Source of the DNA: Amphiscolops sp. MND2022
Taxonomy: Eukaryota
DNA length: 64,000 nt
Direction: 5' to 3'
NCBI GenBank assembly: GCA_964187785.1
Contig: OZ076420.1
Coordinates: 30,070,001 to 30,134,000 of the forward strand
Position numbers and translations under genes: made by a program. How positions within the stretch are numbered: the stretch's first letter is position 1; each line of letters begins with the position of its first letter. Shown here one piece after another: positions 14,866-45,594 of this stretch. Below the pieces are notes generated by a model. It saw nothing but the letters and a program-made list of their open reading frames with translations, searched no databases and was not told the origin of the DNA.

Positions 14866-15549
14866 TCACTGTTTTTGGACATACAGTGTAAAAAGTGATT
14901 GAAGATTGTCGCGATTTTGTTCGCTGTTATATGAGTCTGTTGAACTCTCTCTAGACCTCAGTCTACTATTTTCCTGCGTAAAGCAGGTTTTGGGACGGTT
15001 TTCCCATAATTTCTGAGTATTTCCAACTTCGGCGTTCCGTTGTAGCCCACTGGACATTCGGTCCGTTACGGTGAAATCGGTCGGTCTTGGGCTCAGATGT
15101 GGCCCGTTGGACCCTCGGTCCACCATGGTGAAATCAAGTCTCCCCTGCGTTTCTAGCGTATTTTGAATAGCTGGAAGCACTGTATTTGTTATTGCAGCTG
15201 TGATAGCTTCCTGGACTTGAGAGTTCAAGCTAGTTTTGACCTCATTGAGTTTTCTAGACATTTGATTTGAGATTTCCTCATTAATCAACCTAGTGGTCTC
15301 AATTGTAATTTCGCTGTTTTCCCTACTATTGGTATTAAGCAAAGATCTGAAATCTTCACCTATAACGTTTGAACTTTGTTGTGGTCTACTAGACCCTGAA
15401 TCCAAATTCCCTTCGTTTTCGCTGATATTATTCTCCTCATCACATCTAGAGTAACTTCCAAGCATTATATCTACATTTTCTACGTCAGACATTATGTCCA
15501 ATTGCCTAGAGCGTCTCTCTTTGGCTTTCTGTCTCCTTGTTGATGGCAT
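14866..15549 (-). CDS. Orphan Gag N-terminal ORF in the 3' LTR (214 LTR codons plus 13 codons of host flank, 227 aa)
   Basis: Matches the Gag N-terminus (MPSTRRQKAK...SEQNRD, two amino-acid differences), then reads NLQSLFTLYVQKQ* from flanking DNA. Expression is unknown. Confidence 0.5.
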   Translation of the reverse strand: MPSTRRQKAKERRSRQLDIMSDVENVDIMLGSYSRCDEENNISENEGNLDSGSSRPQQSSNVIGEDFRSLLNTNSRENSEITIETTRLINEEISNQMSRKLNEVKTSLNSQVQEAITAAITNTVLPAIQNTLETQGRLDFTMVDRGSNGPHLSPRPTDFTVTDRMSSGLQRNAEVGNTQKLWENRPKTCFTQENSRLRSRESSTDSYNSEQNRDNLQSLFTLYVQKQ

Positions 15550-16557
15550 TGAACAAGCTTTGGAGATTAATAATGAATAGACAAACGGTCTATTATTCCA
15601 ATAAGTCTTGCAACGTAACAAATTGAATCAGCAGTGTATATAGTTGATAGTTTCACGAAATCAGAAAGAATCATCCTGGGGCCTACGGGTCCCCGCTATA
15701 TATACTTCACATTGCATGACCAGCAAAATTATGCTGGTCATGTTACTAATAATAGCTCCCGGGTTATGTTTTGATACATGACGTCAATATTACTACATCA
15801 AATTGCGGCTAAATATAGCATCAGGGCAAAATGGAGGGATTGACCAATGGTCTGTAAGTGTGACATTAGTTCTAAAATAAGCACTTTTGCTACAAATAGT
15901 TGCATGTTTACTTCAATATTTCATGTCTAACAAGTATCATAACAAACAAATCATCCATTAATACTGTATTAATAGACTTAAGGTCCGAGTAACTACATCA
16001 GCTTATTTAAATTGCAGCTCTAAAAGGTAATAACCGCCGCGGACTGACAGTACGCGCGGCTACAGTGAACATAATAGCATCAACTAATTGGCAGCTAATA
16101 ACACCGCGGTAGACCTTCGGTCCACGTGGCTACAGCAATAGTATTAATAAGAGTGTACAGCACGCTGATTGGTTTATTTAAGTAAGGCCGGTACGTACAC
16201 TGGTTGTCAGCAAGCGTTCATTTGAACACGTTTCCTAGTATTCAGCAAGCATTGCACGTATTACTTTACTTTCGATTGATTATATTACAAATTCATTCAA
16301 TCATTCAAACAGGTACAGGAGTCACCAATTAAGTATATCCCCGTAATGTAAAATTGAAAACTAAGATGTAGCCGTGTGGACCACAGGTCCGTCACGGTAA
16401 AAATATAAAATAGCACTATTTGGATAATATTAAACATAGTTTTGAGTTATTTTACCGTAAGTCTTTCAAATTGCCAATACTCCGGGTGGGGGATTAGATT
16501 CTACATATTCTTGGGGAATTTGATAATAATTCCCGTCACAGGCGGCAGCCTGCGACA
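14907..16557 (-). repeat. Element A 3' LTR (1651 bp)
   Basis: Direct repeat of 29292-30942. About 11 substitutions counted by eye, no indels seen. Confidence 0.96.
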
Positions 16558-16897
16558 CTCCCCCAGGGACTAGAAGTACTGTCCCTTGGTTCATTCCAGC
16601 TAAGTAAGCATCTCTTCGTCTCTGTTGGTCGTAATGCGTTTCGCCTCGTCTTGAAGTCGACTCAAGGTACGTCAGGACTGCAGTCTCGCGGATTTGTTCG
16701 TACGATCTGCCACACACAATGCAATCTCCATAAGCTGCAGCGTTCGGTTCACCACAGTTTGCTCCAATTCGCACACTAATCCCCTGAATGTGAGAGTTTA
16801 CGGGCACAGCAAAATCTGTCACATTGGGGCCAACGTAATCATAACGATTGTAGCTGGGCCCTTGTTCGCACAGAGGTGGAGAGAGCGGCGTGTCCAC
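16466..16897 (-). CDS. ORF-Z: accessory CxxC-containing protein of unknown function, running into the 3' LTR
   Basis: YGDCIVCGRSYEQI...RRDAYLAGMNQG aligns with element B's YSSCMVCGRSVDAI...RREAYLNGLNAG (45951-46445). The last ~30 codons lie in the LTR. The true start is uncertain. Confidence 0.7.
   Translation of the reverse strand: MDTPLSPPLCEQGPSYNRYDYVGPNVTDFAVPVNSHIQGISVRIGANCGEPNAAAYGDCIVCGRSYEQIRETAVLTYLESTSRRGETHYDQQRRRDAYLAGMNQGTVLLVPGGVSQAAACDGNYYQIPQEYVESNPPPGVLAI
16558..16564 (-). other. Short polypurine tract GGGGGAG of element A
   Basis: Directly abuts the TG start of the 3' LTR on the minus strand. Confidence 0.65.
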
Positions 16898-16969
16898 CTG
16901 AGGGACAAGTTTTGAGCACTGGTTGATTGGACAATTGTTCTCTCTGCCGATTGCGTCTGGGCCAGTTCC

Positions 16970-17287
16970 TCATTCGACTATTGCTGTTTTGAAATCTTCA
17001 GGCCAAAAGTCCGAAAAGTCGTCCCAGGGGAACTCGGGCAACCCGTCATCCACGCAGCTAGAGAGATCTGTAGTCATCTTGCGTGTGGCATTCTGTTTAG
17101 GTGGGGCAATTGGCACGTGGCGATAACAGGCGATGACTTCTATGTCACTGTCGTCCGAGTGACGTTCGGTCCCTTGCGCTGACACAGACAAGATGTCTAC
17201 ATCCATATCTTCCTCTTCCTCTGAAGAGAAGTAGGCTGGGCTGACCAAAGAATTGGCCAATTCGTCAATTGTGAATTGAGTTCCCAT
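16970..17287 (-). CDS. Acidic small ORF, in frame with ORF-Z (probably its 5' part)
   Basis: ATG start, in the same frame as 16897-16466 and separated by one TGA. NSL..Y.SSEEE is echoed in element B at ~45595-45660. Confidence 0.45.
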   Translation of the reverse strand: MGTQFTIDELANSLVSPAYFSSEEEEDMDVDILSVSAQGTERHSDDSDIEVIACYRHVPIAPPKQNATRKMTTDLSSCVDDGLPEFPWDDFSDFWPEDFKTAIVE

Positions 17288-18621
17288 CTGAGTTTTATAT
17301 TTTCTAAGGAGGATTTTCTTAGCAATTTTGAAGTTTGCTAGTGGTCAACTGGTTTGGCTTTTGAAATTTGACTGAATGATTTTCTTCTAGTTATTCGGAC
17401 TAGTGGTTTCACCCTTTTTCGCGGGAATCCCCAGCGGGGAAACCGTTTTTCATCTTCTCTAAATTCTTCCCAAACATTCCATATTTGTAATTTTACGGAA
17501 TTTCTAGAAGTAACAACTGAGGTAAATTTCATGTTAATTGGTCTCTGAGGGACTTGTAAGTTATTTGCACAACTACTTGATAGTAGTGAATAGGTGTAGT
17601 AAGTGTTAACTCAAGTTAACACTTGGTAAATAAATTCACCATCAAAGACCTTCGGTCCGCGCGGCTACATCAAATCAAGTAGCCAATGAGGTGTCGTTGA
17701 TAAATGAATGATGAAAATTGATGAAAAATGAATGAAAATGGCGATTTTCTAAACTAATGCTACTCTAAACTGAGAAATGATTCCCATAATTGAATAAAGA
17801 CATGAATATCACTGGCAGTCTCAATCCATGCTAAAAGGGATTATGGTTGACTAAAGGTAGTAAGGGGGAGTTACATAATTGGTACATGGATGTAAATGAA
17901 AGGAGTAATTAGTAGGCCACGACGTCCAAGTAAGATAATTAGTAATCTACAGTCTTTGAGACTTAAAATACAGTATTACTTGATTGTAAGTCTAATGAAG
18001 TTTGAAAGTATAAGTAATAGTATAATTCAGTAATTAACTTTCTGTGTCTGTGAACCAGTATCTTTCACTTCTCTCTCTGACAATACTTGAATTGTCTATT
18101 AACCCGTTGGGTATCGTAGTCTCCAATACAGATCTACCAATTCGTTACCTGCATTTCCCTGACTCAATTGGCGTGTGTCAACTCCAACTTAGTCACATTC
18201 GACTCCCCATCCGCGTTGGACCTACAGTATCCCTGGCCTCAGCAGACCCGCCAATTTGGTTGTCCTGTTTTGAGTAACTACCTGTCCCCTACGCTTTGAA
18301 TTCGCTCTACTGCTTACTGTCATAACAATCGGTTTTGTTGAACCCAACCGACCGGAGGTCTCAGTGGCCACAACATTAAGGCAGGAAAATCAGGAATATC
18401 CGCAGTTCTTCAGGAAGAGAAAACAGAATATCCTAGCTTCCATTCAACTAACTTCTCCGAGTAACAATTGGCGCAAAGAATTTCGCTATTCCATCATGGA
18501 CGTAACGTCAGGTTGGTTCTTTTAGTTTCGTCTAAACTAAATTTGATCAGGATTTAGCTTTGACTGATTTTACTTCCTCCATCGTGAAATCTTTTCAACT
18601 TTGGTTGAATTTTTGAACTGT

Positions 18622-18633
18622 ACTTCCGGAAGT
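18622..18633. promoter_or_regulatory. Palindromic ETS-type site ACTTCCGGAAGT just upstream of the antisense gene ATG
   Basis: 17 nt before ATG 18651. The equivalent position in element B retains ACTTCCGGAAAGT (44158-44170, minus). Confidence 0.45.
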
Positions 18634-18650
18634 TTTGACTAAGCGGCAAG

Positions 18651-21600
18651 ATGGACAAGTTTGCAGGAAGTGAACCGCGTAATTTCATTCCTTTCTATTT
18701 AGGCGAAAGGTCAAACGGCCAACCACGCCAAGTTCCGGCACAAGATAATGAAAATGAGGAACCTCCTATGAATCCTGCAACTGATGTAGCCGAAGAGACA
18801 GTTAGTCCGGGGACAACAGAAAACGAGTTGCCAACAGATCCTAGAACCCAATCTACTTCTGTTCATTTGCTTCCAAGTGCCATAGAAATCATTGAAGGAA
18901 CTTCTTCCCAAGGTTCAACTGAAAAAGACCCTTCCGAACCGATCGATTCGTCAACTGCTGCCTTGAAATCCTTTTCGTCAAACATCCCTCAGTCTCCTGA
19001 TTACTCACCATCGTTACTCAATCTTCTCAAGTCTGACAACAGCAGTTCAGGAGAGAGTGTGCAATCTTATTTTACGAAGAAGGTGTCAAGGATAGAAAAG
19101 GGCCTGAATGAAAGCCCATTGGTCGTCAGTCCTTCTAGTTCGCAGAAGGAAAGTGTCAGTGATCCAATCACCATTAATCCTGGCCCAAGCACACAAGTTG
19201 AAACAGACCTTGAGGCCGCCAAGCCAGAAGATGATACCCCCGCTCAGCAGCTGGACCCACTAGAAACTGAGTCTGAACATGAGGGTGGGCAGGTAGCTAG
19301 TAAAAGACCTAGAATAGGCAGTACTACTGCATTTGGTAGTTACCCCCAAACTGAATCCCAGCCAGCAAACCTCTCGGAAAACAAAGAGCCATCAGTCCAA
19401 TCGTCTGATGAAATGGAACTGGAGGGGGCCCAGGCTCATGCTGCATTGAGTAGTTCTGAATTTGCGGTTGACACTGACCATGATTCCATCACCAACCCTG
19501 CAGGGTCTACTATTGGTCAAGCATTGAAAGCCAGAACTAATAATCATGCTGCTGGGGTTAATGATACTGACGCTGCTTTTCTCCCAGTAGGTTTACCCAG
19601 TACGTCCCGAAATACTTTGCTGGGACCTAGCAGCCGAGCTTTAATCAAAGAGTTCTTCACAAACTCGGAGAAATTTGACTTCCCTAAAGGTCACCCAACT
19701 GTTGCTTTCACGGAGGACCAGATCAGCACAGTAATCAAGGCTGTTGCTGATGAGACCACCCGGTCCACCATTGGAATTATGGAGAGTCTAATTCAGAAAG
19801 CCAGTCAACTAAGGATTGGGCCTGATGATGATCTTGAGAATACCCCTAGTAAATCAGGAAGTCGGTACCCAAGAAGGGCAGGAAGTGTTTCGTCGGGACG
19901 GCATAGCGATACAAGTGGGGCCATTCGTAGCGATGATAATTTTTCCAGCATTGGCTACTCCTACGAGGGTTCAGATGTTGCTATGATCGACGTTCCTCCA
20001 GGAACCAGTGTTGGTGTTTCTTGTGGCTCACATGACCCAGCGTCCGACATGGAGATACCTGACGCAGACAGTCCCGGGACGCAAACTCTAGCTGCTTTGA
20101 AAGCTGAAGCCCTTGGAGCCAAAAATAAACATACCCGGAATAAGCGCGGCAAATTCACTTCAAAGCCTCAAGGTAGTAATACCCGTCGCAAGATCACTCG
20201 TTCATGCAAAATCATGAAAGAAGCATATTTCCAGGGTATGGAGTGGACTCGGACCTTCGTCTCTGGCCCGATGGACCCTCGGTGGAACCCCTATAAGTTC
20301 TACTGCCAAATTTGCAAGGCAAATATTTCAATTTACGGGAAAGGGGACCGAGAAATTTTACGCCACCATACCACGGAAAAGCATCTCCGTAAAGACCAAA
20401 GATGGAGATACGAGTATTTATGTACCGTTGATCCGGTTACTCGAGCGAAGATTCATCACGTGCGAGGAAAAGATGGAAAGTTGCTGACTCCTTATCAGTT
20501 AGAAATGGAGTTGCCAAATTTCATCAATGCTCCATTAGTTGAGATTGGAAAGAAGCTCCCATTTTACGACGAGTACATGGCTGGAGCTGATTACATGTCT
20601 TCCTCGTCTGGTAATCGGGCCCGAGTGCAACTCTCAGTCCTCGCAAATTTCCTTCCCTACAATGGTGACATCGAACTCTTGAAATCATTCTGGGGTGACG
20701 TGGGCGTGATCGTCAACCATCAGTCGCTGTTTATTGATTTTAATTGGGGAAAAGAACGACTAAGCGTAAGTTCTGGTTTATTTGATACTAATTTACCCTG
20801 ATGTAGACGTTTTAACTCCAAGGTTTGTTCATTCTTGAGTCTTGTTCTGTTTGGTTTCAGCTGCTATTTCATCACATGTTTCTGGAACTAGTGTCTGACG
20901 TTGCCACTCACGTGAACCTCAACCGAGAGTACTCTGTCGAATTTGCTGTCGATGGGGTCTTCCTCCTGATCTTCATTCGCTTTTGGAGAGCTGACGAGCT
21001 TTGCAGGGTTTTCCTCAAACGGACCAGTCGTCTCCAGGGCCTGATCAGTGCTGAGATGTGTCTCCTCTCGTACCTGATGGGTGCTGTGTCAACTACTCCC
21101 AAATTGATTTGCGCAACTGGGTGCAGTGCACGGACTGTCGAGCTGCTTGACCAGAGCCCTTACGGGACTTTCAGTATCCAAAGCCCACCCAGATTCGAGG
21201 AGCTTAATTTGTTCCAACTAATGCACAGGAAGTGCAGTAGCGTCTTTGGCAAAATAGACTTCTTCTCAGTCTTGCGATACTTGGTCATTTCGCTCGGGGG
21301 ATGTCTTGAACTCGATTGGGTCCTCCTATCCCCAGAGTTATCCAAAGTACGTATTGTCTTTCTAGTCAAACAGTCTTATATGTCGTAGTCATGTATTCCC
21401 ACAGTTGGTGTTTCTGGCACCCTCCGAGACTTCAACCTTATGTTCTTATTTGCAGGCAATTCGAACTGGACAACTTGACATTTGTGGGCTTCTTTCTCTT
21501 TGTCATGAACTTATGGACAATTGGTCTAAAGTCACTGCATACCTGAGTAAGCACGCCCCAACTCAAGAAAACCAAGCGGTCCGAAGACAGGTAATTCTTA

Positions 21601-22894
21601 AAACTTTGGTCAGGCTTCGCGTACCCTACGTCCACAGTGATATAGACTTTTGTTCTTTTAGCCCCAGAATTTAGAGTGGTCTATAGTACATGACGACTTG
21701 TTCCCTAGCAAACTGGAGTTATTCTACCGATTGATAAGGGATTGTTAGTTATCTTCCTTTTAGTTTCACCTAAGTTCTGCGCATTAGTCCTCAAGGTTCC
21801 TACTTCTTGTTTCAGATACTGGCAGTTTCACTCTCAATTTGAAGTCTAGAAGGGACCGCGGCTTTCATGTGTATAAAGAGCTCTGCCAATTTTTATTCAA
21901 GCTCGGGCGTCGCTGTGTACGGACTAGTGGTCTTCCAGCCGAGAACGACTTTCAGGCTCTCCTCAAACTCTCCTTTCCAGATGCAAAGGCTTTGAGTGTG
22001 GAAGATTTTATCAGCCGCTCCAAGTTAGAAGCGAGACTCAAAGTTGGATCCAAGTTGAAGGCTGAGAAGGAAATGACTGAGGAGAAGAACAAAGGTTTAT
22101 CGCTTGCCGAAGTCACCGCCTCCATTCAGGAAGAATTTGGTCGACTAGCCCGAGGGTACGTAGCCAATCTACTGAATTCTACACAAGCACTTTCGCGCTT
22201 TACATCAGACATCGTCAGAGGTTTAGGTTCCTTCGATCTTGAAATTCTATTGGTTGATCCTGTTGAGCAGGCTAGTTACTGTTTTAAACAACTTTTTACG
22301 AGCTTCAGACTGCGGGGTGTCTTCCAATCCGATGAGGAGAGTATTTATCTGGAAGAATATTTATCTTTCATTGATGAATTACGCCGAGTTCACCCAGAAG
22401 TCCAGCAGCCAAAACTGTTGATAAATGATGCCGTCTATTTTATTTCTCAGCAGGAATTTTTAAAGCCAAGACGACACCTCACCCGAATTTTCCAGCTAAG
22501 TTGCCTCTGCTTGGATGAGCCGAGATTCTCTTTCCCTGCTGTCCGGTTTGGATCAGTGCGAACGCACGAGCCTACTTGCAGTATGTTTGATATAGTTGCT
22601 CCAATTCAATCCTACTACGGGAGTGTTGCACGCGGACTTGACAATCTTATCTCCGAAGCATCTATTGAGCGTTTGTTGGGTTTGGAACAGACCTTTGGGA
22701 CGACTGGCCTCAGCAACACATATAGTCCATGGGATGGCATTGATCGCTTTGGCCGAGACCGAATCAGAGACGCTATCCATACCAAAGCTCCAGTTCGACA
22801 TAAGGTCACTATTGCTACTGGAGTCTCTTCTGATCAGCCCGAAAGCAGTAGGAGTACAAAGTCTTCAAGTCCTAAGAAGTCCGTTAAGTTCTAA
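18651..22894 (+). CDS. Antisense cargo gene of element A: 5 exons, 1315 aa, C2H2/BED-like zinc finger plus hAT-transposase-like body
   Basis: join(18651-20765, 20861-21346, 21405-21590, 21662-21743, 21816-22894). Introns are 95, 58, 71 and 72 nt, all GT-AG, phases 0, 0, 0, 1, with no internal stop. Zinc finger CQIC-x16-H-x5-H at 20304-20384. The hAT assignment comes from motif resemblance only. Confidence 0.85.
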
Positions 22895-23072: not shown

Positions 23073-26000
23073 CTAGTATCTGTATTCGTCAGTGAAGTTG
23101 GGGGTGGGGTTAGGACGAAGGTTATATTTTCCTCCCCTAGGACTTTTATTGTCTACTGACACATCATCATTTTCATCGTCTAATACTTCGGGCACGATAG
23201 TATCGCTCCCTCCTGATGATTCAGGATCATCATTTTGTTCAATTAAGCGATCTGAGCCTGTTTCTTGAGTCATATCAAAATCGTCATTTTCGTGTAGCCC
23301 GGGGGACTCAAGGTCCTCGGTGGTAAAATTGGTATCGGGGGCCCTGGCGCCCTTTTCATGATGAGGCCCGGTGGACGTAAGGTCCACGTCGGTGAAAATC
23401 TCGTCGTGCGTAGCGGTATCATTGTCACGGGTACTAGAATTGTCTAGGTCATCTTGGCACATAGGAATTGCATGTGTATCTGCAGAATTGGGAAATTCTC
23501 CAAAATTTGTTTCCCAGGTAATGACATATAAATCGTCTTGCGGTATAATAATTTCGTCGTCCGGGTGCAAATTGCCTTCCGGTTTGATGTCCTGTAAGAC
23601 GGTGTTCGGTTCATATTTGCGCAGCCTGATTCGGTGTAGGAGTTGCGTTTTGTTGGAATTTAGTTTTCTAACAATGTAATTTTCATTTGGCAAAACTTTT
23701 TCCACAATATAAGGTCCGATCCAACGATATTCACGGAATGGAATTTTCGATCCTTGGTGGTCAGCAGTAGGTTGCAATATAAAACAATAGTCATTCTGTT
23801 TCAAAGGAGCCGCTTTGGCCTTGCGGTCATAGTATTCTTTGTACTTCAAATATGACTGCATGATGTTTTTCTTCGTGGAATCTAGTAATATTTGCGTGCG
23901 TCGCTGAAATTCGTCTGCAAAATCCGTAGTCGGTAGGACTTTAGGGTTAGGATTAAGGCCCAATTTGTGATCCAATATGTTATATGGGATCCGTCCGTGG
24001 AAAATTCTAGATGGTTCACATCCCAGGGTGGCATGATAAGTCGTATTGTAGTTCAATACGGCTAGCGGCAGATATTTATGCCACTGTCGCCTGTAGTCCC
24101 CTGAAGCCATTTTAAGGTTCGTTTTGAGACTAGCATGTGTACGTTCTAATTTACCGATCGTCTGTGGGTGTTTTGTAGTTGCGCATTTTATTTGGATTCC
24201 TAAGATTTGAGCAATTTCAGCCACCAGCTTGGACGTGAAGGCCGTACCTTTGTCAGTAATCAAGGTAGTAGGCAGAAAAGTGTGTTTAGTCATTATGTCT
24301 ATGATGACTTTTGCCGTATTTGTGGCCGAAGCGTCCGTGACTGGATATGCAAAAAGATATCTTGAAAATACGTCCAGCGCGGTGATGATATTTTCGTATC
24401 CGCCACTTGGTGGTAAATTTGGTAACAGATCAATTTGCATTGCATCCTCTGGTCCAAGGTCCCATTCAGGCAAATTAAGGAGTTCAGGGGTGATAGAGGC
24501 ATTTGGAATCCTTTTGTCCTTGATACAAGTTTCACATCCCTGAACCCATCTTTTGACAATTTGCGCAATTCCAGGGTAGTAATATTTTTGTCGAATTTCA
24601 ATAAGCATTTTTGATATTCCTGGGTGTTTATTTGCTTTCCCGTGTAAAGATTCAAGTAGTTCTGTAATTAAATGCTTTGGTAAGAGTACTTGATTGTATT
24701 TAACAGATCCTGTTTCATCAAAATACTGCCTAGTGATAATTTCATCCATGACGGACAGCCGGTCCATTTGGCGACAGTAATGTTGGTATCAATTGTCTTG
24801 CATTAATATGGCCTCGGAGTAGTTTTCTTTCAGAATTTTAAGGCGCAATTGTTGTAGGATGACATCGTTGTTCTGTTCGATTGCTATAGTGTTTGTATAA
24901 GATAATTTTTGAATTGTTGTTAGTTTGTGATAATCGCTTTTGTGTGTAGTGAATTTTTCGAATGAGATATCTGGTAGTGGATTTGCTGGATCGTGTCTTG
25001 CGTCCCTTTTACGTTGTAGAATTTGTTCTTCCGTCTCGTTGTCATCCTCCGTGTAGAAAATTTGTTCCTCTTCCGACACTCCCGCCGATTGGACATGTAG
25101 TTCAATCGGTGTTGTTGGGATATCTTCTCTTATCCTGAGGATCAATTTTTCTTTTGGAGAGATTTCAAGCCGGGACAGATAGTCTGCGGCGGTGTTGTTT
25201 TTGCCTGGTATATGGGCAATTGTGAAATTAAACTGGATAACATAGTCACATGCGTTCCATAGTGTTGGTGGAATGATTTTTGTCTGAAAAAATCGTGTGA
25301 CTGATTTGTTGTCCGTAAGTATTATCACCGGTTTTGGGGTTCCCCAAATTATATGTCCAAATTCCTTGAAGGCGAAGAAAATGGCCAGGAATTCTTTTGC
25401 ATAGATGGACATTTTCAATTGGGTAGGACTAAAGGTCTTGGATCCATAAGCTACTGGTGCAAAGGCTTTCCTCGTAGATGTATATTTCTCGAGGGTATCG
25501 TCTTCGATGAGAACTGCGTACCCTGCGGCCGAAAAGCTAGCGTCGGTCATAAGGGCTATTTGCTTGTTCGGTAGGGGTTGTTTGAGTGCCAGTTCACAAC
25601 ATCGATCAAGAGCCTTATTTAGTTCGGTGAATTTCTCCAGGAGGTCCGGTGTGATCAGGACCTTTTTATCTTTCGTAAGCAATTTGAAAAACGGTGTTAG
25701 TTTTTCTGATAGCCTTGGGATGTAATTCCTGTAATAGTTCAGGAACAACCCCAAGTAACGCTGAAGTGCTTTCTTGGATTTTGGAAATTTCGTATTTTCC
25801 AGAAAAGTTTGGACCCGTGGTCGTTGCGGCTTTACTCCTGCCGGAGTGATAGTGCGACCCAGGAAATCAATTTCGGTTGCGCCAAAGTGACATTTATGCA
25901 TTGTAAGTTTCAGTCCGGCTTTTTGGATGCATTGGAATGTGGCTCTAAGGTTTTTGATAAGTTGTTCGGCATCATTAGCTGCTATTCCGATATCATCAAC

Positions 26001-28171
26001 ATATTGGGCACATTGGTCGGCTTTGATGACTTTGTCCAAATATTCGCGCATGAAGCTAGAAAAGGCCGATAGGGCTCTGCTAAGTCCTTGTGCTAGCCTT
26101 TTGTACGCAAAGGTTCTGCTGGCGAAGTTGAAGGCAAGCATTTCGATAGACCTTTGGCCAGCCATTTGTAAACAGTGGTAAGCTTGCGAGCAATCCAGTT
26201 TACAGAATAGCTTCTTTCCAGCCATATGTTGGGCTGCATCATTAAGTGTACTCACTGGATGATTGTTGTTAATGTAGTCATCCGAGATCAGGTTGTTAAT
26301 TTTGCGTAAATCGACTAGAAGTCTCAATTTGCCATTGGGTTTCTTTCGTGCGAAAATGGGACTGGCGTATTTGGAGAATGGTAGAGTTGTAATTATCCCA
26401 TAGCGGTGTAGTAGGGCCAATTCCACAAGGATGTCCTCCTTGAGATTGATGGGAGTTGGCAAACTCTGACTATAGGCTGGGGAGTCATCTTTCGGGGTTA
26501 ATTTGACCTTGAAGTCTTCGTTCATGCCTATGTCGAAGCGATGCCTAGCAAAGATATCATGAAATTCAACAAGCAGGTCCTCTATGCGGGCTATTTCAGC
26601 GGGTTGGAGCATAGAGTCAGTCCAATCAAAGTTGGATAAGAATTGGCGTCTCGACTCAGGGTCGTCCTGAGGATTAAGTTTTTCTAGTTCCTGAAGATTG
26701 ACGAGTTCTGATAAAATCCTTTTCTGGATAGGCGTATGATTCTGAGTATCTCCAGGGTTGTCTGGTGTTGGAAACCAATAGTTTTCCTTGAAGTCCTCAG
26801 GTTTGGTGGATTTGATCAAGCTACTTGCATAGTAAGCAGCGTTTTCAGGGTTGTCCTGCAACAGGTGCCATGTGGTTACCGGGTCGATAGGTTTGACATA
26901 TTTCATTTGTTCTGGCGTGAGAACAGTGAAATTAGCAACTTGTGTGCCCCTTTTGAGGGTGTAGGGGCTGTCCGTAAAATTGTTCAAATGAACTGAAACT
27001 TGACCATTGGTCAATGTGACTAGAGCGGCATAGAAAGCAATATCGCCGTCGTCCGTAAGGTTGTGGCTCGGTTGAAGGATCCCAGTAACTGTAGTGTTCT
27101 CGTACAGTTGTGTCGCCAGAAGGACCGAGTGTCGGTCATTAGGTGGGATGATTACATCCTCCCTAATGCAAATGGGTTCCATGACGTTTGTGTATTTGTG
27201 ATCGGCAGTTTTTAACTGCATTGAAAAGAATGGGAAATTCAGGACACCCTGTCGCATGTCCAGAATGGTGTTGTTCCTTTGAAGGAACGAAAGACCAATG
27301 AGTGGATCAGTGAGTTTTTCCATAACTATGAATATTTCGTGAAATTCAATATCGCCGACTTCAAACTTCAGTTCAACGGTGCTCTTTGGAGTCTCCAGCT
27401 GTCCATTAGCAACCATAATTTGGAAGCCAGGAGCCGGGCCCTCTTTGACAATCGACTGAGGGGCAAGTAATCGGATTTTACGTAGATCAGCTTCTGGGAT
27501 TGCGCTAGATAGGGCTCCCGTGTCTACAAGGCCGTCTAATGTTAGTTCGCCAAAATCCATCGGAAAATAGAGCATTCGTCTCTTGTATTTGAGGCCAAGA
27601 TTAGTTGTTAGCGGTACATAGTCTGGTTCACCTGTTCCTGTGATTAGGGTGTTCACAAAACGGGCAGCAACTGTTGTGGCCAGTGAGACCTGTGGTCCCG
27701 CACGGTGGAATTCATCGTCGGGCTCAGCCTGCATGACTTGAGATCTCTGAGGTGTGTCATGTTGCCATGGATCGACCTTGGCTTTCACAAGAACCATATT
27801 CAAGGTTCGGTCAATTTCATAAGAATCTGGTTCTCTGATGTGATTTGGTTGGTTGAAATTACGGTAGAAGTATAGATGATGTTGATTGTAGCAATTAGCG
27901 TCCCAATAGGGATCAAAACCATAGTCCGGGTCCGGGTAATATGGGTTATAGTCATCAACAAGAGGTATGAGACGTATAGTCGAAGTATCATGTTGTAGTC
28001 TGTTGGACATAGGGTCCGGAGAGGTAGGTGGAGTCTTCATCTGCTGCTGCCAGTCAGCTGATGATGTTTCTTTAAGAGAGGTATAATATTCAGTGTAATA
28101 TATGTTTGAAGGGTCTGATATTATGTATTGTCGGACACGAAGTTTTGTATTAAATTGGAGTCGTGGCAAAT
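23073..28171 (-). pseudogene. pol: Element A pol (protease-RT-RNase H-integrase), split by one nonsense codon
   Basis: Protease LVDTGA (27516-27524); RT QYVDD (25992-26003); RNase H TDAS/KEFL/TDNK/ADYLSR; integrase HHCC, D-D-E and WIGPY. A single in-frame TGA at 24789-24791 lies where element B has CGA. Confidence 0.95.
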
Positions 28172-29934
28172 CTAGTTTTTTGGGTTTTTCAGGATAGAGG
28201 TTGTTTGTTTGTTTTGGGCATCATTATTACTAGTGGACGGGTCGTCGGTTTTGAAGTCCTCTAGTTTAAGGTTTTTGGGCTTGAGGTGGGCTCCAGCGCC
28301 TTTCCAACATCGTTCGGCCGGGTGGTTCGTTTTGTCGCAAGTTGGACATTTTGGATATTCTTGGTATCCTGCCCGTCATTGCGTCGTTGTTCCTCCTTTC
28401 TTTTAAAATTTCGGCAGTCGTCTTTGACATGTCCCGGTTTCTTGCAATAGTTGCAGGTAATGTTAGGGTCGATGCCAGAAGAAAGAAGGCCAGTTCCCGG
28501 TCGTGTTGCTGTAGGGGCAGTGGACATTGTGGGTACTGGAATGTCGTCCCCCTCCTCGAGTCCATTGAGCTCTAGCTCTCGTTCTAAATGGGTGACAATT
28601 TCCTCATAAGTAGCGTTTTCAAGTCTAGCCATGTTGACTGAACGTTTCAAATTCGGCGGCAATTTGGCATATAGGAGGCTGTCAATCATTGCCTGGGCAT
28701 TCTCGCCAAACGCTTTTTCGGCTCCTTGGTTGAGTTCTTCAAGGAAGTCTGGCAATTTCATGGTATTTGGGTCAAACACCAATCTGTGCCATTTGTGTTT
28801 GGAGGTCGCCTGGGACTCTGGTTTGACATATTTTCGACGAAATACTGCCAGGATTTCCTCCAAGGTTTGCCTGTTTGCCGTATTAATGTTACGGAAAGTT
28901 TGTAGGGCATTCTTTCGTAACAATGAATGAAAATGATTGATTTTCATTGTTTCAGTCATATCCGGCTGCATTTTAATCATTGTATGAAAGAGATCTTCGA
29001 AAAGTTCAAATTTCTCAGATTTACCGTCAAAAGTCAGTGTGGTGGAACTGACAGGTCGTACCATTAGCGTTTGTGCTGATGGACGATTGTTCATGCCAAC
29101 CAATACTTCAGCCAGACGGTTAATGGGGTCAGAACCGGTAGTAGGTGCCGTAGTCTCAGAGACCTGGGGGATTGTATCCTGAGTCTCGTTATTGTTGGAA
29201 TGTTGACTTTGCAGTGGTTCACGGGATTGCATGGGACGTCCAGTGAGGAACTCAGGAACCATATGTGGGGTAGGGTTGGCTCCTGTCACCATGTCGCGAT
29301 TTTGTTCGCTGTTATATGAGTCTGTTGAACTCTCTCTAGACCTCAGTCTACTATTTTCCTGCGTAAAGCAGGTTTTGGGACGGTTTTCCCATAATTTCTG
29401 AGTATTTCCAACTTCGGCGTTCCGTTGTAGCCCACTGGACATTCGGTCCGTTACGGTGAAATCGGTCGGTCTTGGGCTCAGATGTGGCCCGTTGGACCCT
29501 CGGTCCACCATGGTGAAATCAAGTCTCCCCTGCGTTTCTAGCGTATTTTGAATAGCTGGAAGCACTGTATTTGTTATTGCAGCTGTGATAGCTTCCTGGA
29601 CTTGAGAGCTCAAGCTAGTTTTGACCTCATTGAGTTTTCTAGACATTTGATTTGAGATTTCCTCATTAATCAACCTAGTGGCCTCAATTGTAATTTCGCT
29701 GTTTTCCCTACTATTGGTATTAAGTAAAGATCTGAAATCTTCACCTATAACGTTTGAACTTTGTTGTGGTCTACTAGACCCTGAATCCAAATTCCCTTCG
29801 TTTTCGCTGATATTATTCTCCTCATCACATCTAGAGTAACTTCCAAGCATTATATCTACATTTTCTACGTCAGACATTATGTCCAATTGCCTAGAGCGTC
29901 TCTCTTTGGCTTTCTGTCTCCTTGTTGATGGCAT
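28172..29934 (-). CDS. gag: Element A gag (starts in the 5' LTR; two CCHC knuckles; 1 bp lesion near 28361-28376)
   Basis: ATG at 29934 (MPSTRRQKAK). Capsid-like region FDGKSEKFELFEDLF. Knuckle CNYCKKPGHVKDDC, plus a second knuckle CPTCDKTNHPAERC (28348-28307) in the -1 frame, ending at TAG 28172-28174. Confidence 0.9.
28175..28181 (-). promoter_or_regulatory. -1 ribosomal frameshift heptamer A-AAA-AAC at the gag/pol junction
   Basis: CCA AAA AAC TAG in the gag frame; a -1 shift gives AAA AAA CTA GAT TTG CCA, the pol frame. A_AAA_AAC is the established MMTV/HTLV gag-pro slippery site. Confidence 0.75.
29274..29291 (-). other. Primer-binding site TGGTGACAGGAGCC... of element A
   Basis: Immediately follows the LTR-terminal CA. 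Starts TGG (complement of tRNA CCA); the first 9 nt resemble tRNA-Leu-type PBSs. The primer tRNA is not confirmed. Confidence 0.75.
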
Positions 29935-30942
29935 TGAACAAGCTTTGGAGATTAATAATGAATAGACAAACGGTCTATTATTCCAATAAGTCTTGCAACG
30001 TAACAAATTGAATCAGCAGTGTATATAGTTGATAGTTTCACGAAATCAGAAAGAATCATCCTGGGGCCTACGGGTCCCCGCTATATATACTTCACATTGC
30101 ATGACCAGCAAAATTATGCTGGTCATGTTACTAATAATAGCTCCCGGGTTATGTTTTGATACATGACGTCAATATTACTACATCAAATTGCGGCTAAATA
30201 TAGCATCAGGGCAAAATGGAGGGATTGACCAATGGTCTGTAAGTGTGACATTAGTTCTAAAATAAGCACTTTTGCTACAAATAGTTGCATGTTTACTTTA
30301 ATATTTCATGTCTAACAAGTATCATAACAAACAAATCATCCATTATTACTGTACTAATAGACTTAAGGTCCGAGTGACTACATCAGCTTATTTAAATTGC
30401 AGCTCTAAAAGGTAATAACCGTCGCGGACTGACAGTACGCGCGGCTACAGTGAACATAATAGCATCAACTAATTGGCAGCTAATAACACCGCGGTAGACC
30501 TTCGGTCCACGTGGCTACAGCAATAGTATTAATAAGAGTGTACAGCACGCTGATTGGTTTATTTAAGTAAGGCCGGTACGTACACTGGTTGTCAGCAAGC
30601 GTTCATTTGAACACGTTTCCTAGTATTCAGCAAGCATTGCACGTATTACTTTACTTTCGATTGATTATATTACAAATTCATTCAATCATTCAAACAGGCA
30701 CAGGAGTCACCAATTAAGTATATCCCCGTAATGTAAAAATGAAAACTAAGATGTAGCCGTGTGGACCACAGGTCCGTCACGGTAAAAATATAAAATAGCA
30801 CTATTTGGATAATATTAAACATAGTTTTGAGTTATTTTACCGTAAGTCTTTCAAATTGGCAATACTCCGGGTGGGGGATTAGATTCTACATATTCTTGGG
30901 GAATTTGATAATAATTCCCGTCACAGGCGGCAGCCTGCGACA
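29292..30942 (-). repeat. Element A 5' LTR (1651 bp)
   Basis: Runs TGTCGCAGG...AATCGCGACA on the minus strand; flanked by the TSD and the PBS. Confidence 0.96.
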
Positions 30943-30946
30943 AAGA

Positions 30947-32055: not shown

Positions 32056-33834
32056 TGTCGCAGGCTGCCGCCTGTGACGGAACGAGAATAACAACGACAA
32101 CAATTGGGCAACAAATCGCACCCGGAACTTTGCCCATCTATTGAGGTGAACCTTACACAGCAATCAGAAAAACTAGAGTTTTTTTGCGGTATTAAGGAAA
32201 CTTTCCAATTTTGATGTTGCTATTTTCATATATTATTATTGGATTCAAATATTTAGATTGGTCTGTTAACAAATTACGATTTGAGGTATCCAAATCAAGA
32301 AACCAAATCTATTCAAGCTGCAATGTATGTAAGTTGAATTGGAAAGAACTGTGATAAACTGGATGCAATTAATCAGCCGAAAGGAAACGTGTTCAAGTGC
32401 GGAAACGTCCTTTCTCGGCAGCGTTGGCTACAGTTCAGAAACTAGCCAATCAGAGTGTAGTATATATACTTTGTTGTTACGCAGGATATTTCATCATGCC
32501 AGTTACGACCCTTTGACCAATTAAGGCTGCAATTCTTGTGATGAAAGTCAAACGGCCTATTCATGCCAATTTTGGTCCTATTCATACAAATGCTTTACTT
32601 AACGAATAATGATGCGCCTTTAATGAGAAAGGATTTGATGGCTTCTTTCATACGTATTAGTAATTATATTCTGTTGCCCATTGATGCTAAACATACAGTG
32701 TACCGGCTCTTGGAACTATTCTGACAGAATTGTCAGGTTTGGAATTTTGCCAAAGTGCCCTTTCTGACCACCATGAATTTTCTTGGCATATAAAAGAACT
32801 GTCACGGTGCTAAATGAAATATTTCAATTAAATATTCAGCCTCCATGAGTAGGCACGTGCTTGCAAAGGAATGTTCACATTCCTGTAATTCTGACCGCAA
32901 GATGATTCTTTGATGTGTTGTTGACATTTATTATTGTTTTGATCTTCCGTCTATGGAAATATTTAGAATATCACGTGTAAAAAAACTCTCATTCCTTTAT
33001 CAGGCTGACATGGGATTCATGCCCTAGTCTGACGCTTTTAAAGATTCTGCTTTGAAGTATATATGATCTTTAGAACATGTGAAATTTGGAATGTTGACTT
33101 GATTAACCAATCATGTAAAAAATGTGAGTGTCATGCTGACGGGAGTATATATAGCTCCTACTTCCCCAAGCTGACACAGATTTAACAAACCTCATCAAGT
33201 TTAAACCTGTTCTGAACCTGTTTTGGGAATAATTTTCCCGATTAAAATATTTTATTATATAAAATAGGATTTTCTTGATGCCTACCACAAGGAAGCAAAA
33301 GAAAGCCAGAAAGTCTAGACAATCAGTTATGTTTTCTTATATTGAGAATCTTGATATAACGTTAGGAGGAATTAACTTAGAGAGAGAGAGAGGAAAACGA
33401 GTCTAGTAACGTTGGCAGAAGGCCTGATAATCCTAGTTACAAAAATTTGATGAACCAGAACACTAATTCTCACTCTGACTCACGCGAAGCTGAAATTAGA
33501 ACTTTTGCCTAAAATGGCCAAAATTTCAGGGACACTGATTGTAACAGCGAGTTTATTAGACTGTCAGGAGAAATGATGAGGTTTTTTAGGAGCACTGTAA
33601 GCTCCCAGATACAAAGGGCCATGAACGAAGCTATAAGTGATCAGATTTTGCCCTAAGTTCAAGCTACTTTAAGGTCCCGACAGGGACAGTGGCCTGAAAG
33701 AAGTTGGGAGATTCCAATTAGACGACAGGGGGACAGATCTGAAAAAGCCTTAAACCGAATATTCAGAAGCAATTCAAGAGATGAGTTGCCTGGGTTCCCA
33801 AATAACAACGAAGACCTAGTGAGCACTCACGACA
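32056..33834 (+). repeat. Element B 5' LTR (1779 bp)
   Basis: Runs TGTCGCAGGCTGCCGCCTGTGACGG...CACTCACGACA. Visibly diverged from the 3' LTR (roughly 10-15% by eye). Confidence 0.9.
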
Positions 33835-36800
33835 TGGTGGCAAGAGACAACGAATCTCCAAACCATATCCCCGAGTATTTTACCGGACGAATCCCATCGT
33901 GAACCGCACTCAACCAATCCGCTCGTGATAACAAAGATCTCCTCGCAACGACATTAGATGCAACTTAACGCAACTTAACAAACTCCTCCAGTGGCCGTAC
34001 AAGACCCAATCAATAGACTAGCTGACGTCTTGACAAATCTCGAGAATCGTCCAACAGCCCAACAGCAAATCACTATTCGCCCAGTCAATTCCAAAACGAT
34101 GACTTTCGATGGCAAAAGCGAGAAATTTGAGCTGTTCGAGGACTTATTCCACGCGATGATCAAGATGCAGCCAGAAATGTCTGAACAAAAGAAATTCAAC
34201 CATTTTTACCCACGTCTTAGGAAGGGAGCACTTTAGACCTTCAGATGTACTAGTCATGTTCAGCCGAAAATACGTCAAACATGAATCTCAAGCGAATGCC
34301 AAACATGAATGGCACCGTTTGGTCTTTGACCCTAACTTGATGAAACTACCAGACTTCATCGAAGAGTTGAACCAGGGGCGGAGAATGCATTTGGAGACAA
34401 CGCACAAATGATTGGCAGCTTCGTCTACGCAAAACTGCCACCAAAACTAAAAAGATCAGTCAACATGGCCAAATTAGAAGATGGCTCTTACGTTACGACG
34501 AAATTGTTGTCCATCTCGAGAGGGAATTAGAGCATAACACCCTTGAGAAATCAGATGACCTGCCAATGGCTACAAGATCCTCCTCAACATCTAATCCTAA
34601 AACCCTTCTCTCCTATACACTACTATCCGATATCGTCTGAAGTTATGCAAGGAAACGGGCCATATGGTCAAATACTGTGAGAAGCTTAAGAAGGAGAAAG
34701 AAAAAGATGCCCAAAAAGGCAAACCAACTGAAAAGAAAACCTATCCTAAATGTGTAACTTGTGGCAAAACAAATCACCCTGAGGAATGATGTTGGCAAGG
34801 TGCAGGAGCACACCTCAAGCCTAAACGCAATAGGGCTGAAAACTCATCGGATAACAATCCAAATTCATAAGCGTAAAAATCGTGAAATAACTCCACATCG
34901 TCCAGATCCCAGTACTCATCAAAAAAGGACGATCCAAGAAACTAACTTCGCCACGACTCCAACACCACCAACTACTATCAGTTCGACAATTTGTCAGATC
35001 TGATCCTCCAAATACAGTCCTCCATGAATATCAACAACAGTTGATGGGGTGTATCCCTCTCTTATCTGGAAGGAACAATTTGTAAAAGCAACTCTCATCA
35101 CTTATAATAACACCCATTTGTACCAAAAACCATTTCTTATATGGGGCCCTGATTACACCACAAACTTTGCAACCCGATCCAGTTCCGTTCCCTTAACCGT
35201 TGACTACAACGCAACTACATCGATCCAGATTATGGCAGAGATCCCTACTGGGACACCGAAATCTATTACCGGGACTTGCTGCAATTCCAAGAAAACTAAG
35301 GCACTCATAGAAATTTGGCAAATGATTGATGGCTCCACCCATCAAGTGTTCCCTAACCCCTTGGGGACCGAGAAGATACAAGCTAACATTGAGCCAATGC
35401 CTCAATCGCTATTGGATGAAAAACAAATCCAGAACGTCCTTATCACTGCAGAAGGTGAGCCAGATTGTATACCACCTGATTGTATACCCACATCAACCTC
35501 AAATGCAAGAAACGCATGTTGTACTTCCCAATGGACTTTGTGGAAATAACCATAGACGGCCTAATCGACACGGGGGCATTGTCCAGTGCAAATCCTAAAA
35601 GGGACCTCCAAACAATCCGCTTACTTTTTCCACAATCAGTTGTCCGTAAGATCCGCTTCCGAATTTTCAACTAATGGTCTCTAATCGACAAACAGAAACT
35701 CCTAAAAGTACTGTTGAACTGAAATTTGATGTTGATGATATCGAGTTCTATGAAAACTTCATATTAATGGACAGTCTGACAGGACTGATAATTAGACTAT
35801 TGTTCCTTAGGAGAAACCATACAGTTCTGGATTTAAGGCGAGGCATTTTGAATTTCCCATTCGTTTCGATGCAGCTCAAAACAGCTGATCATCGATACTG
35901 TAATGCCCTTGAACCAATCATAATTCCAACTGAAATCACCATTCCACCAAAAGATAAATTCCTAATCAGGACAAATTCCCTGCTCTATCCAGAGAACGCA
36001 AAAACTGGCATCCTCCAGCCAAGTGACCTTCTACACGAAGAATGGGACATTTCATTTTGTCTACCGTTAGTCACATTGGCCGATGGCAACGTTCAAATAC
36101 CAGTGAATAGTTTCCAGAACCCCTATAAACTTAAGAAGGGACTGCATTTTGCTAACTTTTCATTCATGACGCCAGAACAGATGAAATATGTCAAACCGGT
36201 TGTCCCGGTGTCAACATGGCATCTACTACAAAATGACCAGGAGCAAGCAGTCCACAATGTCAGCAGTCTAATCAAGACAAACAAGAATCCTTACCTACTC
36301 CAGAGAATTCTGGAAACCCCGACGAACTCACGCCTATACAGAAAAGAATCCTACGGGAAATCACAGGCCCTACAAGACCTGGGGACACTGGTCCCACAAA
36401 AGATGAGGAATCCTGATCAAAATTCCCAGAAAACTGGAACGATTCCACTCTTGCGCCTGATGAAATAACGAAGTTTGAAGAATTACTAGCGGATTTCCAT
36501 GATATCTTTGCAAGACACCGATTTGACATCAGCATGAATGAGGAATTCAAGGTGAAATTGACACCTAGGGACATTTCCCCAGCTTACCGTCAAAGTCTTC
36601 CAGCACTGATCAACTTGAAAGAAAACATTCTCGTCGAACTATCCATGCTGCACAGATATGGCATAATCACCACACTTCCGTTTTATAAATATGCTAGTCC
36701 AATAATTGCACAAAAAAGCCTAATGGGAAACTCCGACTACCGGTAGACTTGAGAAAAATCAACAACTTAATATCGGACGATTATATAAATAGTATTCATC

Positions 36801-39800: not shown

Positions 39801-39825
39801 CTACTGAGATGTCTTCAGTTACTAA
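33278..39825 (+). pseudogene. Element B gag-pol, many stops and frameshifts
   Basis: MPTTRKQKKA start in the LTR; FDGKSEKFELFEDLF; CVTCGKTNHPEE; IDTGALSSA; QYVDDIGI; integrase HPGISKM; ends NLRPNPNPNY. Confidence 0.9.
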
Positions 39826-40074
39826 GAATTGAATTGTCCCCGAAATTTGGAGTTCTTTTCTTTTTATCTTTTGTTTTTAATTTCTTTCTGGTTTCTTTTG
39901 AATAATATAAGGACAACGGAGGAAACAATCCCGCTCAAGCAAAAAACATGGGGAGCGCAACAAAGAATGGATAAATACAAAGAGAAACTAGTAGCAAATA
40001 AACACAACGAGATCAAAGAAAATGAACAAACAAAGTTCGCAGTTCGAAAGTGTCCAAAAATACATATGTACAGC

Positions 40075-43000: not shown

Positions 43001-44143
43001 AGTATCTGCAGAAGATTTTGAATCAGTATCTGAATCAAAACTGGCATCAGTGACCTCTCCACGCTTTGGGGTTTGAGCCCGGTTTCTCACTTTGAAGTGA
43101 TCAGTGTGTTATTGCGAAGTGATAGGAGCTCCTTTTAATGCATCTAGGAACACTCGCTCCATGGTATTGTATGTCTCGCTCATAGTCTCATTGATGAGGA
43201 TCTTGAGGAGATGGTACAACTGGCGCTCAGTGAAAACGACTGTCGGATGTCCAACTGGGAAGATTAAGGCTTCAGTCGTTTCAAAATACGCCTTCAGGAG
43301 GGCCCTGCTCTTTCCAAAACGTTCATGCAATTTAGGTTTGTTTGACTGAGTAGCTGATGTCCATGGTCCAATTGAGCCACTTTGATAGGGGACAAAACCA
43401 GATTCGTCCCCTCCCTGCGTCCCCGATTCTGCTTCCTGGGGGACTCCTGCATGTAAGAGTTAACAATTTGACTCTCAACGTCGCCCATCTGCTCTCCCGC
43501 ACTTGGATTGGTCAAAAATGTGACGTTACTGTTCCCACTTGGTAAAGGAGGGCATCACACACGGATGAGGTCGAGTCATCTTCCGGCTGGGTATGCGAGC
43601 TTGCTGTCCTTACCTCAGTGGTACCGTGAGCTGGTGGTAACTTTGGTAAATGGTTCCTGTTGTTAGTGGCAATTTGCAAGATAGACTCAGTTATAGTTAG
43701 GTTGATATTGCCTTCCTCGAGTGGAAGTCCGGAAGTAGGGGTGCTTGTCCTGGTACGCCACTCAGTCCTTGAGTGGGTGGGAGCCAACTCAGGGCTGACT
43801 GAACGTTAATTGTCATCAGACATCTCTTCTCCAGACTCCTCTTGTATAGCTGCCTGGGCCTTTTCCATGATGCTGACATTGCGTCTGCAAAGACATTCAC
43901 ATCTGTGTCGCTCTCAACACTGGCTGGAAAACAGACCGGCAACCCGTGTGCCTGGAATACGGACTCTACCCGATATCTCAGTAGTAGAAGCATTAGTCGG
44001 GAGAAAAAGCGGTGGAAAGCAGATCTTGTGTTGAGCTGTTGAAGAACTCGGGTTTGGATCTGGTCTCTGTGAGTTCTCTGTACTGTTTATCTAAACAGAA
44101 GGGAATGAAGTTTGGCGGTGTGCTTCCGTGAAAAAAATCAAGT
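40075..44143 (-). pseudogene. Element B copy of the antisense hAT-like cargo gene (decayed, introns retained)
   Basis: Homologous blocks DFFHGSTPPNFIPF, GHPTVVFTERQL, EILRHHRSEKHLRREQKW, YLTKHAP and LKGLAALDP. Donor GTAAGT at 42172; introns at 41520-41368 and 41297-41223. Confidence 0.85.
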
Positions 44144-45390: not shown

Positions 45391-45594
45391 AAGGTTTACG
45401 CCGACATGGGATAATTTACCGGTTTCAACTGCCAAATTGAAATTACCGGGAAAATCCCTATCTCGACTTGAGGCAGAATTACCAGCAGTATCATTCCACC
45501 CAGAACTCTGACAGTATTTAGTTGCCTCTAGCAGATCAAAATTGCTAGAAAGCCAATAGTGGAAAATTTTAATTTCTCAAGAAGATTCTTTGAT

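Follow-up and report, generated by a model that had tools for sequence, protein, structure and literature searches.

A 64,000-nucleotide stretch of the Amphiscolops sp. MND2022 genome (assembly GCA_964187785.1, contig OZ076420.1, positions 30,070,001 to 30,134,000 of the forward strand; hereafter the window, numbered from its first letter) contains a Gypsy (Ty3) long terminal repeat (LTR) retrotransposon that carries a large cargo gene antisense to its own genes. The cargo encodes a protein of hAT descent that is not itself an active hAT transposase; its carrier is a Gypsy element. The gene runs on the plus strand from an ATG at 18651 to a stop at 22894, comprises 1,298 codons in five exons and lies between the integrase and the 3' LTR of its host. 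Exon 1 (18651..20765; 705 codons) encodes about 515 low-complexity residues with one conserved island, a basic patch and a C2H2 zinc finger. It would also include the counterpart of the intertwined dimerisation domain of the hAT transposase Hermes, as residue 1 of exon 2 aligns to Hermes 149-153 in the structural model. Exon 2 (20861..21346; 162 codons) encodes a five-stranded RNase H-like core, in which the first-Asp, second-Asp and CxxH positions are degenerate, and the start of a helical insertion. Exon 3 (21456..21590; 45 codons) covers the region of the lost RW motif and the next helix, and exon 4 (21662..21743) contributes 27 codons plus a split codon, with junctions confirmed by intron-less relatives. 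Exon 5 (21816..22894) supplies the helical insertion domain, the hAT C-terminal region without its conserved catalytic Glu, extra C-terminal helices and a basic tail. The original prediction, made from the sequence of this window, had placed the hAT-like gene at 20280..22560. That interval does belong to the gene, but constitutes only its 3' half; the motifs quoted for it are all present in the stated order, and exon 4 is missing from them.

Genome searches of the 1.07-Gb assembly, whose match counts are lower bounds, yielded at least 116 scored matches for exon 5 and at least 150 for the finger region, with further sets from diverged queries. Eighty copies, chosen to span divergence down to about 25% identity, fall into five cargo groups: A (that of the window), B, C1, C2 and D. 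The splicing pattern was derived by comparison across 81 copies, with counts referring to cases in which both flanking exons were located. Specifically, introns 1 to 4 are bounded by GT-AG in 48/68, 53/61, 50/65 and 58/66 cases, most of the remainder being, in our reading, broken frames or a one-codon offset in clade D. Introns 2, 3 and 4 are exactly absent from one, six and six copies, respectively (L148; L077, L080, L083, L084, L088 and L147; L047, L048, L050, L148, L149 and L150), where the exons fuse in frame as predicted. The five-exon model is strongly supported by this comparison. Ordinary retrotransposition is not expected to remove the introns of an antisense gene; the exact losses suggest recombination with spliced cargo complementary DNA (cDNA) and hence, indirectly, that the cargo is transcribed and spliced. 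In one further copy (L123), cargo exons 1-3 are tandemly duplicated.

The host element lies on the minus strand and is identified as Gypsy by TG...CA LTRs, a 5-bp target-site duplication (TSD; AAGAT at 14902-14906 and 30943-30947) and the order protease, reverse transcriptase (RT), RNase H, integrase; Pfam likewise recovers gag, protease, RT, RNase H and integrase in Gypsy order. Its 3' LTR (14907..16557) and 5' LTR (29292..30942) measure 1,651 nt each and differ by 11 mismatches (99.3% identity), which indicates a young element. Pol (23073..28220, minus strand) encodes protease, a dUTPase-like segment, RT, RNase H and integrase, and in the window copy is interrupted by a single in-frame stop between RNase H and integrase; the dUTPase-like segment between protease and RT (within 24792-28220, minus strand) reaches only a below-cut-off Pfam E value of 0.019. 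Gag (28261..29934, minus strand) encodes a zinc knuckle and starts within the LTR, which includes its first approximately 215 codons, a layout shared by clades A-C; the primer-binding site consequently falls within the gag frame.

Between the integrase stop and the 3' LTR, the element holds the large opposite-strand cargo and a small same-strand open reading frame (ORF). The pol stop codon (23073) and the cargo stop are convergent and 179 nt apart. At its other end the cargo stands head-to-head with the small second accessory ORF (16466..17287, minus strand), across a non-coding spacer (17288..18650) presumed to act as a bidirectional promoter. The accessory ORF is sense to gag-pol, consists of two same-frame pieces separated by one TGA, contains a CxxC motif and crosses the polypurine tract into the 3' LTR. 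Its second piece recurs in 10 of 13 other elements tested, at 31-96% identity, and was found neither in the two clade-D elements nor in L072.

The hAT fold and its catalytic positions

The original prediction had proposed a Pfam check for Dimer_Tnp_hAT, DUF4371 and zf-BED, and this came back empty: neither hAT family was detected in the window exons or in 33 and 23 alignment members, nor zf-BED among cargo alignment members. A sequence-profile search of the PDB with three cargo alignments returned nothing significant, a word-based protein search with exon 5 found no match among longer proteins (weak evidence), and the ESM Atlas, queried with exons of two relatives, gave no usable match. Alignment by hhalign to 111 THAP12/ZMYM1-type hAT proteins was not significant, and its global mode produced no usable alignment; a purpose-built profile aligner gave a collinear, weak match to the same set, scoring 81.9 against 68.8 ± 5.3 for block-shuffled controls (about 2.5 standard deviations). 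When 40 true hAT loci from the same genome were compared with hidden Markov models (HMMs) of the cargo exons, the best E was an unconvincing 0.007, and a DUF4371 genome search was uninformative, its control being likewise silent. Exon 5 folded alone, with a predicted local distance difference test score (pLDDT) of 62.6, matched nothing in Foldseek or VIA beyond Z 5.6, so that single-exon folding misses the hAT relationship.

The new AlphaFold model was built for a clade-B relative, L084, in which exons 2-5 stand in a single frame with two introns read through, from 69 cargo-only rows of a 110-row alignment. In the model (pLDDT 80.9, predicted TM-score 0.80), a long helical insertion follows an RNase H-like core of five strands, and both retained introns are disordered, among four stretches with pLDDT below 50. 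Likeness to the hAT fold had been set beforehand as the test of the predicted kinship, and it is present: among 48,161 chains, Hermes is the sole match at Z of at least 8 (Z 14.3, root-mean-square deviation 4.5 over 381 residues), the next reaching 6.7. Model residues 1-562 align to Hermes 153-609, and comparison with Hermes entry 4d1q gives Z 15.6. The top ten Foldseek rows are all Hermes (E 7.9e-4, probability 1.0), the best match in a viral structure library is a hAT protein (E 9.5e-3), and integrases and other DDE enzymes, named after their Asp-Asp-Glu triad, match only the core at Z of about 6. Judged from this model, the cargo almost certainly descends from a hAT transposase. The hAT assignment of the original prediction thereby stands; its narrower ZNF862/C17orf113/Buster subtype, based on motifs typical of those proteins, is not shown, since Pfam, PDB-sequence and profile-profile comparisons were not significant and the reference set was of THAP12/ZMYM1 type.

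The catalytic positions were compared between 74 cargo rows (66 for exon 3) and the 111-protein hAT control set, in which they are nearly invariant (Asp 111/111, Asp 109/110, His 111/111, Arg 110/111, Glu 109/110). At the second Asp, whose register is set by the invariant Gly after strand 4, none of the 74 cargo rows has Asp; clades A-C have Ser or Thr (Thr in the window) and 10 of 11 clade-D rows have Glu. The His of CxxH is replaced by Phe, Tyr or Leu in 74/74 rows, and the RW position lacks Trp in all 66 exon-3 rows, a result that covers the clades other than D, where exon 3 was not located. Asp is absent from both candidate columns for the first Asp, which have Glu in 62/73 and 38/73 rows, and the window has Ala at the second. 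An Asp does occur one or two residues past these candidates, in the turn, in a column that differs by clade. Exon-5 positions 228-261 contain no acidic column common to all clades, and the segment extrapolated to the Glu helix of Hermes, placed by Hermes and integrase residue numbering, is coil and hairpin in the L084 model.

These comparisons indicate that the canonical triad is lost in clades A-C and the zinc finger retained, and the window protein is very probably catalytically inactive. They agree with the earlier reading of a hAT transposase that has lost its catalytic residues; an intact DDE triad, which would have spoken for an active transposase, was found neither in the window protein nor in clades A-C. 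The predicted absence of terminal inverted repeats (TIRs) and of an 8-bp TSD around the cargo gene also holds. A 17-nt inverted pair bracketing the gene (18274-18290 and 23048-23064) was considered as a TIR remnant and rejected, being unconserved and scoring at control level over 59 copies.

Selection, zinc finger and clade-specific palindromes

The cargo behaves as a trait of its Gypsy lineage. Among 59 copies (the window and 58 others for which 9-10 kb of sequence was retrieved and exon 5 located), pol lies antisense and downstream of the cargo in 56; two of the other three retain only the integrase tip and one has no pol. No stop interrupts 88 of the 116 exon-5 matches among those listed, and the ratio of non-synonymous to synonymous substitution rates (dN/dS) ranges from 0.033 to 0.087 across six non-saturated pairs drawn from clades A, B and D; 16 of 23 pairs are saturated at synonymous sites. 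For the disordered N-terminus, dN/dS is 0.23. These values indicate that the reading frame is under purifying selection. In trees built from 32 elements, cargo and integrase sort into the same five groups, with only the order of C1 and C2 differing, and the cargo tree is about five times longer (9.2 versus 1.7). Within groups, cargo and integrase shuffle freely. Individual pairs illustrate this: integrase synonymous divergence (dS) between the window and L038 is 0.115 with the cargo saturated, the window and L032 differ by an integrase dS of 1.13 and a cargo dS of 0.37, L116 and L120 share an identical integrase core and have distinct cargos, and L079/L089 show further shuffling within a clade. 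Beyond this genome, a profile search of 1.84 billion representative proteins gave 833 matches at E of 0.001 or less, many of them fragments; all ten homologues looked up were without a name. Two database homologues, P0130 and P0043, have best matches in this genome of only 27-32% identity, so the cargo family probably extends to other genomes.

The original prediction had described a disordered N-terminus of some 500 residues with one conserved island, and the composition fits this. Residues 1 to about 515 are mostly low-complexity and acidic (Asp plus Glu 16%), with 17-19% hydrophobic residues, rising to 29% at residues 321-395, which contain the GHPTV.FTE.Q island (19689..19721, plus strand). 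The strict island motif occurs in 5/25 clade-A, 21/29 clade-B and 0/24 clade-C or -D copies, with looser likeness in clade C (tblastn), and alignments to clade-B and -C copies start near residue 324. The zinc finger (C-x2-C-x16-H-x5-H; 20304..20384, plus strand) has both His invariant in all clades and both Cys at 90% or more, and the helix before the first His combines invariant with clade-specific positions. Pfam returned a sub-threshold C2H2 match only (PF25420, 13 of 23 members, best E 3e-5), and a two-copy fold of the finger region gave no confident structure. In Hermes, the BED domains pair on a quasi-palindrome via the helix before the first His (PMC10368747).

Candidate targets of such a finger are found within the elements themselves. 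GACC-N3-GGTC has 13 matches in the 64-kb window, all inside the host element, against 0.40 expected and 0/100 shuffles. Each LTR carries four (15110, 15842, 16112 and 16379 in the 3' LTR); two more precede the cargo within the spacer (17647 and 18350), and pol accounts for the other three (25812, 27002 and 27687). In an unbiased scan of 2,816 spaced palindromes, this motif ranked top in the window element (9 observed, 0.2 expected). It occurs in 20/20 clade-A elements (114 observed, 3.0 expected), and GCCG-N4-CGGC occurs in 24/24 clade-B elements (58 observed, 1.2 expected), the two motifs occupying equivalent places in the spacer and integrase tail. At an RT site encoding identical amino acids, the A motif is present in 13/16 clade-A versus 0/20 clade-B copies. 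Because the spacer length is strict, the loops vary and alternative, compensatory Watson-Crick pairs are few, the pattern looks like the mark of a protein dimer bound to double-stranded DNA and not of an RNA hairpin. One finger-helix position also follows the motif: clades A, C1 and D, with Arg there, have 20.7, 7.5 and 6.3 GAC-N5-GTC sites per 10 kb, versus 2.0 and 2.2 in B and C2, without Arg.

Further sequences in the window touch on these motifs. A second, older Gypsy element (32056..48063, plus strand; LTRs 84% identical) carries a decayed clade-B cargo (40276-44142, minus strand). It has the clade-B palindrome at two positions, 39570 and 44371, and lacks the clade-A motif. The sequence TGACGTCA, which resembles a cyclic AMP response element (CRE) site, recurs next to the clade palindromes at a fixed place in the low-complexity C-terminal tail of the integrase in clades B, C and D (for example at window position 39468 and in L071-L090). 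A repeat of about 56 nt is dispersed in both orientations (303-378, 14053-14099, 49411-49486, 52045-52100, 52695-52770 and 56690-56745); some copies contain GCCG-N4-CGGC, and the repeats are probably the ends of an unrelated small element.

A proposed regulator and its rivals

Taken together, the findings suggest that a hAT transposase was domesticated by an LTR retrotransposon as a clade-specific, sequence-specific DNA-binding regulator of its cognate elements, a proposal that we regard as evenly balanced between true and false. An ancestor of the Gypsy lineage would have captured a whole hAT transposase gene once, antisense, between integrase and 3' LTR; fold, position and clade-level co-phylogeny argue for such a single capture. 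The antisense orientation would allow the introns to survive reverse transcription, in line with established retroelement biology. Conservation and dN/dS indicate that the cargo then lost its transposition chemistry and kept zinc finger and scaffold. Expressed from its own promoter in the spacer, it would most likely work as a nuclear, multimeric regulator with sequence-specific DNA binding, recognising the palindrome of its clade (GACC-N3-GGTC in that of the window) in the LTR, spacer, pol and integrase tail of cognate copies, and its acidic, disordered N-terminus would recruit host factors. The DNA-binding or anti-silencing role envisaged in the original prediction would thereby gain a candidate target site.

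By analogy with the plant regulators VANC and TnpA, cognate copies would most likely be activated or de-silenced; a role as activator or anti-silencing factor is the likelier sign of regulation, held here tentatively. In its most far-reaching form, which we consider possible and on balance doubtful, the model has the domesticated class II transposase of a class I element serve as a sequence-specific transactivator or anti-silencing factor, evolving in concert with the palindrome that it targets. Finger and operator would then be matched in every Gypsy clade, with operators reaching even synonymous pol positions, and one genome would harbour a radiation of private lock-and-key systems of self-activation.

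Several observations weigh against this account. The pooled motif counts share descent and are not independent, and the correlation between helix residue and motif rests on one or two evolutionary events. Clade C1 has both motif types, and the palindrome scan gave no clear private motif for C2 and D beyond TGACGTCA, itself also found in B and C. Motif, cargo clade and gag/pol clade coincide, with no between-clade recombinant found among the 32 elements, so a host factor or the second accessory protein could also read the sites. The structural model is that of a relative 30-40% identical to the window exons and not of the window protein, and the registers of the first Asp and the Glu are uncertain by 2-5 residues. 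Basal clade D keeps acids near all three catalytic sites, with Asp at exon-2 position 30 in 9/11 rows, Glu at 86 in 10/11 and Asp or Glu at exon-5 position 238 in 9/11. The closest cargo pair, the window and L031, has a dN/dS of 0.71, which we read as decay after insertion.

The main rival accepts a dead, hAT-derived protein that does not read the palindromes; they would be bound by a transcription factor of the host or by the product of the second accessory ORF, and the cargo would act by protein contacts, either as a decoy for a host silencing factor or as a dominant-negative partner of host hAT-derived proteins. The inseparable clades of motif, cargo and pol speak for it, as do the conserved CxxC protein encoded head-to-head with the cargo, the many true hAT elements in the genome, and a constraint on the insertion and C-terminal regions that equals that on the finger and exceeds the needs of a bare DNA reader. 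We nevertheless consider it unlikely: the metal ligands and recognition-helix residues of the finger are among the best-conserved columns in all clades, and palindromes that differ between clades of one genome are not simply explained by a fixed host factor. Somewhat less probable still is a cargo that binds the palindromes and acts after transcription, by coating cDNA, by tethering or targeting the integration complex, or as a self-limiting repressor of copy number. Sites do cluster in the integrase tail and inside pol besides the promoter regions, and the hAT scaffold holds DNA ends in a multimer (PMC10368747), yet the sites are internal and not at the LTR tips, and the long acidic, disordered N-terminus would suit a transcription factor. 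A pure repressor, moreover, would be hard to square with dN/dS below 0.1 on hundreds of multiplying copies.

We give little credence to an RNA-level accessory factor of Rev- or CERV-like kind, for which the palindromes would be hairpins of genomic RNA that the cargo exports or packages. Short-spacer palindromes can form stem-loops, and by our calculation inner-pair Watson-Crick combinations number 140/332 against about 104 under independence; the stems, however, are fixed in sequence with variable loops, non-pairing variants are common, and an alternative Watson-Crick pair replaces the G-C pair in only 4/121 (A) and 11/99 (B) cores. Equally remote is the reading that the cargo, in basal clade D at least, still works as a nuclease or transposase through an acidic site of non-canonical type. 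The clade-D acids and a strand-1 Glu invariant in clades A-C (62/62) are set against the Thr at the second position in the window, the coil and hairpin modelled in place of the Glu helix, the loss of CxxH and RW in all clades examined and the missing TIRs and 8-bp TSD. A functionless relic of a nested hAT insertion is the least credible of all: dN/dS of 0.03-0.09 with synonymous saturation between subfamilies, the uninterrupted exon-5 matches noted above and splice sites conserved around diverged introns oppose it, and selection on the reading frame already refutes it. The cargo is real, functional and a product of cross-class capture; that it serves as a TE-encoded regulator is about as likely as not.

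Relation to known systems

Hosts are well known to benefit from domesticated transposases, the dead transposases ZBED and ZNF862 being examples, and some plant DNA transposons are known to encode regulators. In the present case an LTR retrotransposon would benefit, and a capture crossing TE classes would have founded a large radiation; unusually, selfish DNA of one kind would have domesticated selfish DNA of another. Searches of full-text literature that covered few subscription journals or repeat-database entries and no supplements found no report of a hAT-derived gene in LTR retrotransposons. Pfam, HMM and language-model searches all overlook a cargo of this kind, which comes to light only once folding takes the exons into account. 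For the antisense extra ORFs of Gypsy elements, it offers a recognisable fold, matched candidate sites in at least two clades and natural variation, which together make the regulator hypothesis directly testable.

Like Hermes, the cargo has a zinc finger ahead of an RNase H-like core, a large helical insertion that follows strand 5, and a C-terminal part that rejoins the core; unlike Hermes, to which it is 10-11% identical, it lacks catalytic and end-processing residues, bears a disordered N-terminus of about 515 residues and a C2H2 instead of a CCHC finger, and travels in an LTR element. Host-domesticated dead transposases such as MUSTANG and FAR1 have likewise lost DDE and kept a DNA-binding scaffold under purifying selection (10.64898/2026.08.24.746577). 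For the cargo, by contrast, the domesticator would be a transposon, and the gene is multicopy and diversifying instead of a single-copy host gene. Gypsy elements of bdelloid rotifers and planarians also carry captured ORFs downstream of pol (PMC5408684, PMC6431247); these encode env, esterase, exonuclease or coiled-coil proteins, and PMC5408684 nowhere uses the word transposase.

In position, the closest parallel is TRP28 (PF04195) of the plant Retand/Grande Gypsy elements, an antisense ORF that almost every active member has retained between pol and the 3' LTR; a role as DNA-binding regulator has been proposed for it, and it is reported to lack similarity to other known TEs (PMC11963269). The cargo differs from it in having a full hAT fold, four introns and a candidate target site. 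In mode of action, VANC of VANDAL and TnpA of Spm are also TE-encoded, sequence-specific regulators with family-specific short motifs enriched in their cognates (PMC5735166); such enrichment is found in cargo clades A and B, with binding of the motif by the cargo putative. VANC and TnpA, however, serve plant DNA transposons and the cargo would serve an LTR retrotransposon, and VANC motifs form non-palindromic tandem arrays in non-coding DNA, whereas those of the cargo are dispersed palindromes that also lie within pol. VANC is MAIN-like (PMC13547354), and TnpA derives from an ancestral transposase (10.64898/2026.08.24.746577) of its element's own superfamily, while the cargo crosses TE classes. 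As such, the cargo would work most like VANC and TnpA, is placed like the antisense ORFs of Retand, and is a member of none of these systems.

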